A stretch of 64,000 nt of DNA from Octopus vulgaris. Taxonomy: Eukaryota. The notes beneath the pieces were generated by a model. That model worked only from the letters and a program-made list of their open reading frames with translations. It had not been told where the DNA came from and searched no databases. Of this stretch, positions 8,375 through 61,358 are shown piece by piece (the stretch's first letter is position 1; every line of letters starts with the position of its first letter). Position numbers and translations under genes: made by a program. The stretch lies in assembly GCA_951406725.2 (NCBI GenBank), contig OX597816.1, positions 136,896,001-136,960,000 of the forward strand. The letters are read 5' to 3'.

Positions 8375-8925
8375 TATATACATATACATACATACATACA
8401 TACATACATACATACATACATACATACATACATACATACATATATATATATATACATATATATATATTATAAGGTTTGGAGATGATGTACAGGTATTATA
8501 TATAAGAAGAAATAAGGTACTCAGAAATCTGGATGGTTTTATATTTACAGATATTTTAATAAATATCTGTAAATATAAAACCATCCAGATTTCTGAGTAC
8601 CTTATTTCTTCTATATATATATATATATATATATATATATTATATATATATATATGCATATATGTATATATATATATATGCATATATATATATATATATA
8701 TATATATATATATATGTATATATATATATATGATATATATGTATATGTATATATATATATATGTATATATATATATATATATATATATATATATATATAT
8801 ATATATATGTATATATATAGTATATATATATATATATATATATATATATATATATATGTATATGTATATATATGTATATGTATATGTATATATATATATA
8901 TATATATATATATATATATATATAT
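8375..8925. repeat. (TA)n/(TACA)n microsatellite tract interrupted by a palindrome
   Basis: Seen directly. Confidence 0.9.
8505..8612. repeat. Perfect 108-bp hairpin (52-bp arms, taat loop)
   Basis: agaagaaataaggtactcagaaatctggatgg...atattt / aaatat...ccatccagatttctgagtaccttatttcttct are exact reverse complements. Confidence 0.95.
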
Positions 8926-9289
8926 GTCAGTTTTCCATGCTAGCATGGAAAACGGACGCTAAACGATGATGATGATATACATATACATACATACATATAT
9001 ATACACATAGACATATACATATATACACACACATAGATATATATATATATTGTTTGTTGAGTATGAGGATTGATTAGCTTTATGAAAAAAAATTAACTTC
9101 AATGGATTTCCTTTCTTTCTTTTGTTCTTGCTTTTAACAACTTTGCCAGTATATTGCAAAATTACATTCATTTATGTTTTGGCAGTAATGATCCTTATCC
9201 ATTATCTGTACTTAGCTTTAAAAATTGCTTCCAAATTTAAGTTTTACTTTTTAAATCACCAGCAGTGGGTTATAAAATTTTCACTAAAA

Positions 9290-10580
9290 TATGTTGACCC
9301 CATCCTTTTCATCATAGCAATGAAACTCCTCATAACAGCTGCTGATAAAGAAGCCAAAGTACTAACAAAGGAGTCAAGCAACCAACAACATCCAATAAGT
9401 AGTTTCCTGGATGATCTTACAATGACAACCACAACCCATGAATAGGCTGAGAGGGTGCTGACTTCACTTGAACACATGGCAACATAGGCTAGAATGAGGT
9501 TTAAGTCCAAGAAATCTAGGAGTATGGGGATCAGGAGAGGCAAATTAAACAAAATTGAGCTGGAAGTTGAAGGAAAGGCTATTTCATGAATAGAGAAAAA
9601 TCCAATTAAATGCTTTGGAAAGAGGTTTGACAGTTCACTTTCTGACAAAAGCAATGTTGCCTATACTGAGAAGCAAGCGAAGAAGTGGCTGAAGATGATT
9701 GAACAACCAAGGCTTCCAGGAAAATACAAGGCATGGATCTACCAACATGAACTGCTTCAAAGATTCATATAGTTATTGATTGTGTATGAGATTCTAATGT
9801 CAAGAGTAGAAAGAGTGGAGAGAGAGGTAAATAAATACTTCCGGGGCTTGTTAGGTGTCACCCCAAGCTTCACTTCAATAGGCCTGTACATAAGATCTGG
9901 ACAGCTACAACTTCCTCTGTCATCCGTAGTGAAGGAATTCAAAGTTGCAAAATGCAGAGTTGTAATGATGTACAGGGACTCTCACAATGAGTGTGTCAGA
10001 CATGCAGGTATTACAACCAGGTCCAGGTGAAAGTGGGAGGCTAGCATCACAGTTGCACAGACTGAAAGCATGCTGAAGCTACACAACACCGTTGGAATTA
10101 CATGCTGAGATCAGAGGTTGTCCATACAACCTAGAGGCCAGATGTATTTCTGTGGTCTGAAAATCCCAAGAAAATAACCTTGATTGAGCTTACAGTCCCA
10201 CGGGAAGAAGAGTGCGATCAAGCCTATGAATTGAAGTGTGCTAAGTATGAGAACCTTCTGTAGGATTGCAGGGATAAGGGATGGCAGTTATGGCTTTTCC
10301 CAGTGGAGGTTGGCTGTAGGGGGTTCCTTGCCCAGTCAGTATGGAGCATGCTTACTGCCATTGGAATGAGGGTGGATGTTCGCAGGATGGTAGAGACAGC
10401 AGAAAGAGCCTCTTGCTGGTTAAGGAGCAAAAGAGAGGAGTTAGGCTGGAAGCCAGGAGATGATGAGTAGTGATTTGGCCACCTCTGCTGACCCACCAAT
10501 AGGAGGGTGTTATGGTTCTGGATCGAAACACCTGCAGGTCGCGGGATACTGTCCGATGATATCAGTTCCTCCTGACTAAA
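9290..10580 (+). mobile_element. Degenerate RLE-type non-LTR retrotransposon (Hero/NeSL-like): RT C-terminal half plus restriction-like endonuclease
   Basis: FLDDLT (RT catalytic), MRFKSKKSRS, LPGKYKAWIYQH, LQLPLSS. RPD...LIELTVP...FPVEVGCRGF is a PD-(D/E)xK endonuclease motif. Many stops. Confidence 0.8.
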
Positions 10581-58000: not shown

Positions 58001-58160
58001 ATGACGGCCTTCTTTCAGTTTCCATCTACCAATCCACTCACAAAGCTTTGGTCGGCCCGAGGCTATAGTAGAAGACACTTTCCCAAGATACTACGCAGTG
58101 GAACTGAACTTGGAACCATGTGGTTGGTAAGCAAGCTACTTACCACTCAGTCATTCTTGG
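58001..58160 (-). mobile_element. SINE family A, 5' half
   Basis: Reverse complement of the family A head and core. Confidence 0.8.
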
Positions 58161-59041
58161 GCCTAAGATACTTTTATTTGTAATTCCCAGCGTGACACCA
58201 TATCTGGTTCTTTGAAATACAAGTACGTTTCCATTGTTTCTGTCGACTCACTTTCGTTCACAAGAGTTGTGGCTAAAACCTCGTAATTGCGAAGCAAACA
58301 TCTTTTACTCGGTATTCTTGATCAAAATGTATGGAGAAAAAAAACAAAAGAGACAGAGAGAAAGAAAGAAAGAAAGAAGAGAAAGAAAGAGAGAGAAAGA
58401 GCGAGAGAGAGAGAGAGAGAGAGAGAGAGAGAGAGAGAGAGAGAGAGAGAGAGAGAGAAAGAGCGAGAGAGAGACATGCGAAGGAAGTACGACGGCAGCC
58501 ATTTACATTTCGACAAATGAGAAAAACAGCCTTATGCTTTTTTTAGATTTTATTATTTTTTAAACTTTCCCACGATTATTTTGTTATTGACTGAATTTGT
58601 TGATTAGTAAATTGTTCATTTGACACTATTCTTTTTATTCCCTCCTTGTTTACTCTTTGTTTTGTACCACTTCAGCGACATCAGTTGCCATTTAATTTTT
58701 TTGTATTTTCCTTTTTTCGCCCTTGAACAACAAACAACAACAAAAAAAATTCGCAAAAAACATGTGAACAGGATTGATCGATCAATAGCTATAAAGAATA
58801 CAAACCTCCCTCCACACGGTTTGTATATTATTGTAAACAACTGTGAAACGAAGTTATCGTATGACTTCATAAGGCAAAGAGCGAAAAACAACTAAGGCAG
58901 GTACATCTATGTATGTATGTATGTATGTATGTATGTATGTATGTATGTATGTATGTATGTATGTATGTATGTATGTATGTATGTATGTATGTGTGTGTGT
59001 GTGCGCGCGTGCGTGCGTACATATATATATATATATATATA

Positions 59042-61358
59042 GATGAAGGGGATTTTTCCTTGTGTAGTATGTCCTGTACTCTGTTTTTCTGTTGTAAAAA
59101 AATGGTTTTTCCGTTTTCATTTCTCGTTGAGTTCTACGTCTCTGTTTTTCTGTTGTAAAAAAATGGTTTTCGTTTCTCGTTGAGTTCTACGTCTAGTTGT
59201 GGTGTCCTGTACTCACGTATATATATATTTATATATGCATGTATATATACATGTAGATGTAGGTACGTACATATGTTTGTATGTATGCATATATTTTATT
59301 TATTACACTATTGTTTGACAGCGCCCTCGCGTCGGTTCGATTCGATTCGTTCGCTTCGTTCCGTTCTTATTCTCCCAGTACTGTTTTATATATAATTATG
59401 ACGCGAAATTCCTTATCTCTTTGCTTTACCTTCCCTTCTCTCTCACTCTTCCTCATCTCTCTCTCAGCCGCTTGTCTTCCTCTATCTCTCTCTCTCTCAC
59501 TCCTCCTCATCTTTGTCACTGCTAGCCAAAACTACTTCCTTTTACACACGGCCTTCAAACTGTAAAGACACACATTTGTGTTCCCATGCGCTGCAAGAAT
59601 CTCCTCCGTCTAAGCCAGAAAAAGGCCTTTTCGTTTGTTTTCTTGTTTATTTTTATTTCTCGTATTGTATTTTCTTGTACACGTATTTTTATCTTGTATT
59701 TTATTTTGTAGTTTTATTTGTATCGTTTTTACGTCTTGTTTGTGGTACATTTTCTTCTTGCTTGTTTTTACCCCTCTGCGAGGTAATTTTATTTTAATTC
59801 TCTCGCAGGAAGGATTAGTTTGGCGAGTCGTGTTCTGTCTTGCCTTCGAAACACGCTAGAGTCGAACTAGTGACAGCTGATGAAGGGGATTTTTCCTTGT
59901 GTAGTATGTCCTGTACTCTGTTTTTCTGTTGTAAAAAAATGGTTTTTCCGTTTCTCGTTGTGTTCTACGTCTAGTTGTGGTGTCCTGTACTCACGTATAT
60001 ATATTTATATATGCATGTATATATACATGTAGATGTAGGTACGTACATATGTTTGTATGTATGCATATATTTTATTTATTACACTATTGTTTGACAGCGC
60101 CCTCGCGTCGGTTCGATTCGATTCGTTCGCTTCGTTCCGTTCTTATTCTCCCAGTACTGTTTTATATATAATTATGACGCGAAATTCCTTATCTCTTTGC
60201 TTTACCTTCCCTTCTCTCTCACTCTTCCTCATCTCTCTCTCAGCCGCTTGTCTTCCTCTATCTCTCTCTCTCTCACTCCTCCTCATCTTTGTCACTGCTA
60301 GCCAAAACTACTTCCTTTTACACACGGCCTTCAAACTGTAAAGACACACATTTGTGTTCCCATGCGCTGCAAGAATCTCCTCCGTCTAAGCCAGAAAAAG
60401 GCCTTTTCGTTTGTTTTCTTGTTTATTTTTATTTCTCGTATTGTATTTTCTTGTACACGTATTTTTATCTTGTATTTTATTTTGTAGTTTTATTTGTATC
60501 GTTTTTACGTCTTGTTTGTGGTACATTTTCTTCTTGCTTGTTTTTACCCCTCTGCGAGGTAATTTTATTTTAATTCTCTCGCAGGAAGGATTAGTTTGGC
60601 GAGTCGTGTTCTGTCTTGCCTTCGAAACACGCTAGAGTCGAACTAGTGACAGCTGATGAAGGGGATTTTTCCTTGTGTAGTATGTCCTGTACTCTGTTTT
60701 TCTGTTGTAAAAAAATGGTTTTTCCGTTTCTCGTTGTGTTCTACGTCTAGTTGTGGTGTCCTGTACTCACGTATATATATTTATATATGCATGTATATAT
60801 ACATGTAGATGTAGGTACGTACATATATGTTTGTATGTATGCATATATTTTATTTATTACACTATATATATATATATATATATATATATATATAAAACAG
60901 TACTTGGAGAATAAGAACGGAATGAAACGAACGAATCGAATCGAACCGACGCGAGGGCGCTGTCAAACAATAGTGTAATAAATAAAATATATGCATACAT
61001 ACAAACATATATGTACGTACCTACATCTACATGTATATATACATGCATATATAAATATATATACGTGAGTACAGGACACCACAACTAGACGTAGAACTCA
61101 ACGAGAAACGAAAACGGAAAAACAAGCATGGAACAAACCATTTTTTTACAACAGAAAAACAGAGTACAAGACAAACTACACAAGGAAAAATCCCCTTCAT
61201 CAGCTGTCTCTAGTTCAACTCTAGAGTGTTTCGAAGGTAAGACAGAACACGACTCGTAAAACTAGCCCTTCCTGCGAGAGAATTAAAATAAAATTATTTC
61301 GCAGAGGGGTAAAAACAAAGAAAGAAAAAAATGTAACTCAAACAGGACGTAAAAACGA
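59042..61358. repeat. Tandem array of 776-bp units (~2.3 copies) followed by an inverted partial copy
   Basis: ctgatgaagggg at 59877 and 60653 (period 776); identical ORF translations offset by 776; after (TA)n, 60890-61358 is a reverse-complement copy. Confidence 0.92.

Follow-up and report, generated by a model that had tools for sequence, protein, structure and literature searches.

The window analysed here, 64,000 nucleotides from Octopus vulgaris, contains ten loci that an earlier note listed as fold-backs, hammerhead ribozyme carriers or both, and read as a single recurring RNA system. Do these loci belong together, and do any of them encode a working ribozyme? The window holds at least 11 separate repeat families as opposed to one system. 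We put at roughly 0.7 the probability that it carries short 3' ends of these families, likely leftovers of Penelope-like elements (PLEs), plus one non-coding 776-bp tandem unit (59042-61330). This unit has its hammerhead blocks in a non-circular order, would adopt a four-way-junction self-cleaving fold that cuts multimers to monomers, and likely owes its insertion into (TA)n tracts to copying by a Naiad enzyme. Coordinates are collected in Table 1; comparisons with the publications cited refer to the parts of those sources consulted.

Table 1. Positions of repeat ends, hammerhead motifs and predicted helices in the window
Feature	Position	Strand	Remarks
Fold-back of 3' end	8474..8621	.	Only one arm has a tail; lies in (TA)n
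Fold-back of old type I family (18915 locus)	18936..19043	.	Both arms cut at or inside core
End of high-copy family with minimal hammerhead	21691..21900	-	Not a fold-back
Fold-back, each arm with a variant type I motif	26721..27340	.	Cores 26920 -, 27072 +
Decayed type I-like motif	32935..33060	+	~90 nt between core halves; long stem II region
Type I-like motif	50581..50690	+	~80-90 nt separating core halves; older family; inverted partner absent from window
Fold-back, intact type I hammerhead on minus arm	50805..51064	-	Core 50898, GUA at 50847
Two opposed decayed type I-like motifs	51560..51950	.	Cores 51651 -, 51870 +
Near-intact type I hammerhead overlooked by the earlier note	52183..52257	-	Core 52252, GUA at 52188
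3' end of young PLE, C-terminal GIY-YIG (presumed)	53050..53790	+	Inverted truncated copy on left
Intact type I hammerhead of 53050 locus	53648-53727	+	GUA at 53724; 55-nt stem II region
~2.3 head-to-tail units of 776-bp ORF-less element	59042..60865	+	5'-truncated inside first hammerhead core; ends in (TA)n
Permuted hammerhead, copy 1	59771..59888	+	Predicted cut 59834/59835 (GUU)
Copy 1, helix IIa (predicted)	59771-75 with 59884-88	+
Copy 1, hairpin (predicted)	59776-59808	+
Copy 1, stem II (predicted)	59809-13 with 59843-47	+
Copy 1, outer helix (predicted)	59814-24 with 59861-71	+
Copy 1, stem III (predicted)	59829-33 with 59851-55	+
Copy 1, stem I (predicted)	59835-39 with 59872-76	+
Copy 1, GAAA and CUGAUGA	59848-51; 59877-83	+
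Permuted hammerhead, copy 2	60547..60664	+	Sequence same as copy 1; predicted cut 60610/60611
Inverted copy from sister subfamily, tail to tail	60887..61358	-	86-97% alike
Permuted hammerhead of inverted copy	61309-61192	-	Predicted cut 61246/61245

Type I hammerheads and fold-backs

Nine of the listed loci are short 3' ends sitting in microsatellites, several with an inverted copy; inverted copies and microsatellite insertion are published PLE traits (PMC8557442). The combination characteristic of PLEs, a fixed 3' end with an optional tail, variable 5' truncation and a microsatellite target, was counted for the 59042 family and seen in alignments for the 53050, 50581 and 8505 families. Inverted repeats were confirmed at 8497-8621, 18936-19043, 26721-27256, 50805-51064, 53050-53790 and 59042-61330. 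The type I hammerheads carried by these ends are intact (50823, 53050), variant or decayed. The loci are real, but 21791, 32935 and 50581 have no inverted partner within the window, and the window copy of 8505 has no hammerhead motif, its family showing only CUGANGA with an upstream hairpin. Inspection by eye found no permuted form in the 8505 family.

The motifs exceed their frequency in dinucleotide-shuffled sequence: a strict type I descriptor found two (53651 on the plus and 50898 on the minus strand) versus none in each of 150 local shuffles, and a loose one (core, GAAA, palindrome, UH) found 13 versus a shuffle mean of 4.0 and a maximum of 9. The suggested Rfam scan of the window gave no hammerhead family among the matches listed (150 of 182). 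Departures from the intact form differ by family. The 26721 motif has a 6-bp stem I, an AUU site, and C and A at 10.1/11.1; the 50581 motif is decayed, with a long stem II region; stems I and III are present and stem II is weak in the 51605 family; the 21791 family has C at position 4 throughout, with two further changes in the window copy; and the plus-arm motif of the 50805..51064 fold-back is decayed. The nine loci and 52252 share with the minimal hammerheads of PLE pseudo-LTRs (PMC4209133) the type I order, a palindromic stem III, a short stem I and occurrence as scattered single or opposed copies. Several window families differ from those forms in having stem II regions of 30-90 nt, a C at position 4 or no Watson-Crick 10.1/11.1 pair, variants that may themselves be known. 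Type I hammerheads in PLE-like ends are already known, and the window findings other than the 59042 motif are ordinary PLE debris.

A coding PLE is the source of the 53050 family, which represents its 3' end. At one locus of genome G000 (L141), a 589-aa frame lies upstream of the end and encodes an RT (Pfam E 0.003, below cut-off) followed by what we take, from its motifs, to be a GIY-YIG endonuclease, for which Pfam gave no match. The 26721 family adjoins a GIY-YIG remnant at one of 30 loci (L092 of G000); long frames beside this family on C9 were rejected as an element ORF and belong to a duplicated host gene. An RT or GIY-YIG link was therefore obtained for only two type I families, with no such frame within the 1.5-kb flanks of the others. 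Pfam and PDB sequence searches named RTs weakly and the endonuclease not at all, and both RT fragments recovered in this work fell below the Pfam cut-off. These links and the type I motifs bear out the association of PLEs with hammerheads proposed in the earlier note; its view of non-autonomous palindromic families mostly fails, given the coding 53050 family and the 26721 remnant. Its statement that no RT or GIY-YIG frame lies nearby is correct inside the window, where no PLE RT or GIY-YIG match was found, but a GIY-YIG remnant (L147) lies ~2.3 kb beyond the right end.

The fold-back shape might itself be the functional unit of several non-autonomous palindromic families, producing long dsRNA for ADAR, and the inverted second copy in 21/30 loci of the 53050 family and 7/20 of the 50581 family (some loci counted twice) would suit this idea. 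However, such a copy occurs at none of 30 loci of the 21791 family and at 5/28 of the 59042 family, arm lengths differ from copy to copy, 5'-end inversion is a published PLE trait and the 53050 family is coding, all of which make a selected fold-back very improbable. We infer that the fold-backs other than 59042 arose as by-products of 5' truncation with inversion, a process that Craig et al. (PMC8557442) describe for PLEs, and are not selected dsRNA. Four contig sets guessed to be RNA cover the 776-bp unit; among their differences are both A>G and T>C and both C>T and G>A, indistinguishable from family variants.

A permuted hammerhead motif in the 776-bp unit

The 776-bp unit is non-coding (longest ATG frame 94 aa) and tandem, with one hammerhead per unit, as in non-LTR retrozymes. 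Among the listed families, the 59042 family alone behaves as a retrozyme-like non-coding unit, with a ribozyme other than the minimal type I. At the 28 other loci of the family, the copy ends at unit position 253 in 18 cases and at 336 in five, and six loci are longer than one unit. Its blocks are arranged non-circularly, with the site first, then GAAA and then CUGAUGA; since this reverses the type I arrangement, no GAAAC follows the core. A type II reading (GAAA, site, core) was rejected, as stem I does not form in the alignment.

In the predicted fold, the strand after CUGAUGA would pair with an upstream C-rich strand to form helix IIa, a hairpin would follow the IIa strand directly without spacer, and the next strand would supply G10.1 and stem II. 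With stem II on the upstream strand, the prediction places a four-way junction between A9 and G10.1; given the order IIa, hairpin, stem II, these two nucleotides would be joined by a strand-exchange junction and not by the backbone. Stem III would run through a GA-rich internal loop into an outer helix that leads back to where stems I and II end distally, substituting for the usual contact between loops I and II. A kink-turn consists of a helix, a 3-nt bulge, tandem G-A pairs and a second helix, and the internal loop may be kink-turn-like: GA is present on both strands in 43/56 rows, and the spacing is standard in Naiad-type copies and two letters longer in the copy of the window. The motif is predicted to be self-cleaving and, with its full stem III, would work as a monomer, unlike palindromic type I hammerheads, which need dimers.

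The GAAA-then-CUGANGA pattern has 5,294 genome matches versus six for reversed controls, and the site-then-GAAA pattern 1,380 versus none; when all six block orders were scanned in the window and 160 loci, only SGC (28) and CGS (28) passed. In an alignment of 61 copies made from sequence only, 87.0% of cells pair versus 78.8% after shuffling, and 165 cells are changed on both sides versus 61, values reached by none of 500 shuffles; sliding the partners out of register leaves 39-49% pairing. Covariation is present in five helices plus the outer helix; stems I and III covary across 59042 subfamilies, and all three hammerhead stems show covariation. These tallies score sequences rather than events; the three types of stem II derive from three clades, and 20/500 shuffles matched the number of pairs changed on both sides. 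Five Watson-Crick pairs form in the upstream stem II in 45/57 rows (shuffled mean 0.8), and a hairpin of at least 3 bp lies directly between IIa and II in 38/57.

These upstream helices might instead be an inactive off-switch fold of a plain type-SGC hammerhead, in which the G-rich strand after CUGAUGA pairs directly with the strand preceding GAAA. Pairing in such a direct stem II reaches 93% of cells, G10.1-C11.1 is present in 51/61, and the 5-bp stem I and 3-nt linker between stems I and II fit the published form (PMC10085705). Yet U-G predominates in two of its four pairs, only a single pair is changed on both sides, and no row of 57 has four Watson-Crick pairs, wobble pairing still being possible. 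Its energy is -3.1 kcal/mol, against -7.5 for the upstream stem II and -9.2 for IIa, and a coral Naiad end appears by eye unable to form it. We therefore regard the plain type-SGC form as unlikely. By eye, the flanks of block C offer only short, inconsistent candidates for an extra helix; the linker pairs upstream instead. The minimum-energy fold contains IIa, the hairpin, stem III and the outer helix, while all four strands that would build stems I and II stay free; that of the inverted window copy differs from the four-way form (z -0.23). The outer helix scores -6.7 versus -3.6 with swapped partners.

The motif could also be a conserved hammerhead derivative that has lost cleavage and is used by a PLE protein as a signal for binding or priming. 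None of the published forms compared separates A9 from G10.1, and an anole PLE did not require hammerhead cleavage in vitro, with no reads starting at the site (PMC11167929). On the other hand, all core letters are kept together with the cleavage triplet NUH (52/56 rows, none ending in G), which catalysis requires and a mere scaffold would not, and loss of cleavage seems to us quite unlikely. The core letters were fixed by the search pattern, and NUH lies outside it.

Naiad elements and related ribozymes

A sister motif has 433 matches in G000 versus none for controls and, with the same fold, follows a Naiad-type RT end in 9/15 loci. The RT fragment closes the frame ahead of the motif; no N-terminal GIY-YIG was seen in the 15 stretches, which stop short of the N-terminal domain. 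By eye, the sister motif and the published Naiad_Ovul end are almost the same, and every helix of the four-way fold can be traced in a coral Naiad end of unrelated sequence; the Naiad ends of octopus and coral carry the fold of the 59042 motif. Naiad PLEs (PMC8557442) also have in common with the 59042 element (TA)n targeting, 5' truncation, partial tandems, an optional tail and inverted copies; the 59042 element differs in lacking an ORF. As the 776-bp unit has no nucleotide similarity to Naiad 3' ends, the few BLAST hits being other insertions of its own kind, a Naiad partner is suggested by the fold and the (TA)n targeting.

A tandem copy would be transcribed and cleaved once per unit, and the 776-nt RNA possibly circularised. 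Target-primed reverse transcription could then begin at either of two fixed internal points, located 253 and 336 nt beyond the cut, and yield copies longer than one unit, with a Naiad enzyme the likely agent of copying back into (TA)n tracts. Metazoan non-LTR retrozymes (PMC7229834; bioRxiv 10.64898/2026.07.22.740005) are likewise non-coding head-to-tail units with one hammerhead each, are proposed to be PLE-derived and span 51-972 bp, a range that includes 776 bp. The published retrozymes carry type I hammerheads, whereas this unit carries a permuted one. Fifteen 10-kb stretches, 13 chosen blind and two flanking the window, contained no permuted motif, as expected at ~2 per Mb.

The nearest known ribozyme is the type-SGC hammerhead (HRIMA-1 and variants), which shares with the 59042 motif the order site, GAAA, CUGANGA, the full core, a pseudoknot, a 5-bp stem I and ~3 nt between the stem I and stem II strands. 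The 59042 motif differs in that stem II is predicted on a fourth, upstream strand, with IIa and the hairpin between A9 and G10.1. In Eckert et al. (2023; PMC10085705), SGC occurs almost only in metatranscriptomes and CSG in metagenomes, non-circular hammerheads are absent from known genomes except for one bacterial GCS candidate, and block C is assumed to be uninterruptible. Unlike these published SGC and CSG forms, the present motif is genomic, animal and present in thousands of retroelement copies. No report of the four-way fold or of permuted hammerheads in PLEs was found in the literature consulted, which largely excluded subscription journals.

We lean, by a little over even odds, towards a broader reading: that animal genomes encode an active four-block hammerhead whose core is interrupted at A9/G10.1 and held together by a four-way junction; that Naiads kept but rewired the ribozyme in at least two ways, octopus and coral having the four-way form and nematodes and a spider type CSG; and that Naiad-dependent retrozymes with the four-way fold have reached thousands of copies in G000. 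If true, non-circularly permuted ribozymes would exist in animal chromosomes at high copy number, tied to a defined host element, and the assumption that CUGANGA must run straight into stem II would become testable. Standard descriptors and Rfam miss the permuted motif, and counts of animal ribozymes may therefore be low. The published puzzle of hammerhead-less Naiads would also be explained: Craig et al. (2021; PMC8557442) describe Naiads as lacking a canonical hammerhead and mark eight 'half cores'. Inspection by eye of 17 of the 54 published Naiad consensus 3' ends (PMC8557442 supplement) gave seven complete permuted hammerheads and nine ends without a resolvable hammerhead. Seven of the eight 'half cores' were inspected, and five proved to be complete permuted hammerheads, one partial and one undecipherable.

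Dispersed fold-back families and Penelope-like elements

The window, from a 2.8 Gb genome, is rich in repeats and contains LINE, mariner and helicase remnants. About ten loci, named here by their start positions, had been described in an earlier note as showing a fold-back, a hammerhead motif or both. A fold-back was present at six of the ten; 21791, 32935 and 50581 lacked a partner and 51605 proved to be two opposed decayed copies. A strict type I descriptor found two motifs against none in 150 shuffles, and a loose one 13 against 4.0 in shuffles. Every listed locus is a member of a separate dispersed family, for which a first look gave between 167 and 3,201 candidates. 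The family-specific core pattern was matched in 30/30 retrieved loci for 53050, 24/30 for 21791, 22/30 for 26721, 10/15 for 50823, 9/20 for 50581, 6/15 for 51605 and 3/12 for 32935, where the retrieved loci are the top-scoring copies, a non-random sample, and each set includes the window's own copy. No full hammerhead was found among 15 copies of the 8505 family, four of which (L302, L306, L308 and L309) are 5'-truncated directly before CUGAAGA.

The suspected connection with Penelope-like elements (PLEs) held at the coding level for two families. Upstream of the 53050 family, several loci carry a GIY-YIG-type domain and one (L141) a 589-aa RT-endonuclease frame, and at L092 the 26721 family begins where a GIY-YIG-type domain ends; no coding link was found for seven families. 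Excerpts of PMC8557442 describe PLE copies whose 3' ends are fixed and whose 5' ends vary, with optional tails, inverted copies alongside and microsatellites as targets, and the window families agree with this description in ends, tails, inverted copies and targets. Minimal type I hammerheads with a palindromic stem III, single or on opposite strands, have also been published (PMC4209133, in excerpt). Because of the coding links, this anatomy and the published hammerheads, we read nine of the listed loci as truncated PLE ends; for the seven families without a coding link the reading is based on anatomy. Taken as stated, the earlier finding is for the most part PLE biology that is already known; within it lies a predicted hammerhead variant, in the 59042 element, of which no description was found in the literature searched.

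A permuted motif in a 776-bp tandem element

In the 59042 element no GAAA lies downstream of the CUGAUGA core; GAAA is found 25 nt upstream of it, with a GUH site (H being U or C among copies) a further 13 nt before GAAA. This is the site-GAAA-core (SGC) order of Eckert et al. (PMC10085705, in excerpt). Genome-wide, two block-order patterns gave 1,380 matches versus 0 and 5,294 versus 6, and in copies chosen by their GAAA and core blocks only, whenever stem I or III changes, the upstream site block changes with it.

Units of this element measure 776 bp and contain no ATG frame above 94 aa. In related subfamilies, same-strand copies lie 589-1,135 bp apart at seven loci other than the window and farther apart at three. 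Among 28 other loci with 59042-type copies, six exceed one unit, and the ends of 23 fall on either of two fixed sites separated by 83 nt. For an anole PLE, two internal starts were shown to delimit a tail (Frangieh et al., PMC11167929, in excerpt); the putative 59042 tail exceeds the 30-40 bp cited there. The uneven likeness of two tail-to-tail arms in the window (60721-61114) suggests conversion or a recombinant copy.

Pairing of stem II

Direct pairing of the strand after the core with that before GAAA was the first model for stem II; a four-way junction, with stem II built from an upstream strand, was then tested. A structure-blind filter kept 99 of 145 distinct motif copies, and the 61 non-redundant ones among these were aligned. 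With all rows retained, including five 5'-truncated and five Naiad-type rows misaligned upstream, 87.0% of cells pair in the five-helix model, with 165 two-sided changes versus 61 shuffled. Once four truncated rows were dropped, upstream stem II was perfect in 45/57 rows and direct stem II in 0/57. With wobbles included, 93% of cells still pair in the direct form, which is therefore disfavoured but no more. The first pair of IIa, the helix after CUGAUGA, is U-A, G-C or A-U across subfamilies, which shows the letter after A9 to be paired rather than bulged. In an outer helix, the strand 3' of stem II pairs with that 5' of stem I (56 rows, five dropped). The predicted four-way fold is well supported by these comparisons.

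A probable relation to Naiad elements

A published Octopus end from Naiad, a PLE group, is nearly identical by eye to loci in this genome. A sister motif with other stem letters gave 433 matches; a piece of the frame preceding one copy gave 109, with the motif 0.8-1.4 kb downstream in 9/15 retrieved, and RT motifs close the frame at one locus. By-eye inspection covered 17 of the 54 published Naiad ends, on the assumption that the file lists them in the order of the table. Nine, including all four bivalve ends, showed no resolvable hammerhead, and one squid end showed stems I and III only. The four-way form was seen in three (two octopus, one coral) and a complete core-site-GAAA (CSG) type in four (three nematodes, one spider), the latter with direct stem II and a helix linking the core-block flanks. 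Given this outcome, the predicted permuted ribozyme is common but not universal in Naiads.

Features of the window and of related loci
Position	Feature	Observation
8198-8375	Extra fold-back, absent from the earlier list	GAAAC-palindrome-GUA remnant at 8297
16066-16137	tRNA-family match	62.5 bits; may be a gene or the head of a SINE
21790-21825 (-); L111-L140	21791 family, candidate hammerhead	High-copy, 97-99% identical; C at core position 4 and GUU site kept in 24/30 loci
61403-61556; 39327-39408	Additional 21791-family copies	Partly deleted; one adjoins an inverted 59042 copy
26865-26926; 32935-33060; 50581-50690	Three families	C-A or A-A mismatch at 10.1/11.1, followed by a short stem II; 80-90 nt inserts in two
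57620-57909; 32112-32630; 31524-31561	Further inverted repeats	No hammerhead motif; possibly DNA-transposon remnants
59042-61330	59042 element	Permuted motif
60721-61114	Tail-to-tail 59042 arms	Close to the junction, 99% alike for 145 nt; 86-89% farther out
L147:2272-2646; 8537-8764	Two PLE GIY-YIG-type remnants	Immediately right of the window
C9 28.56-28.75 Mb (L083, L088, L090, L091, L104)	Tandem cluster of cysteine-rich secreted or receptor-like host genes	26721-family insertion duplicated together with the genes
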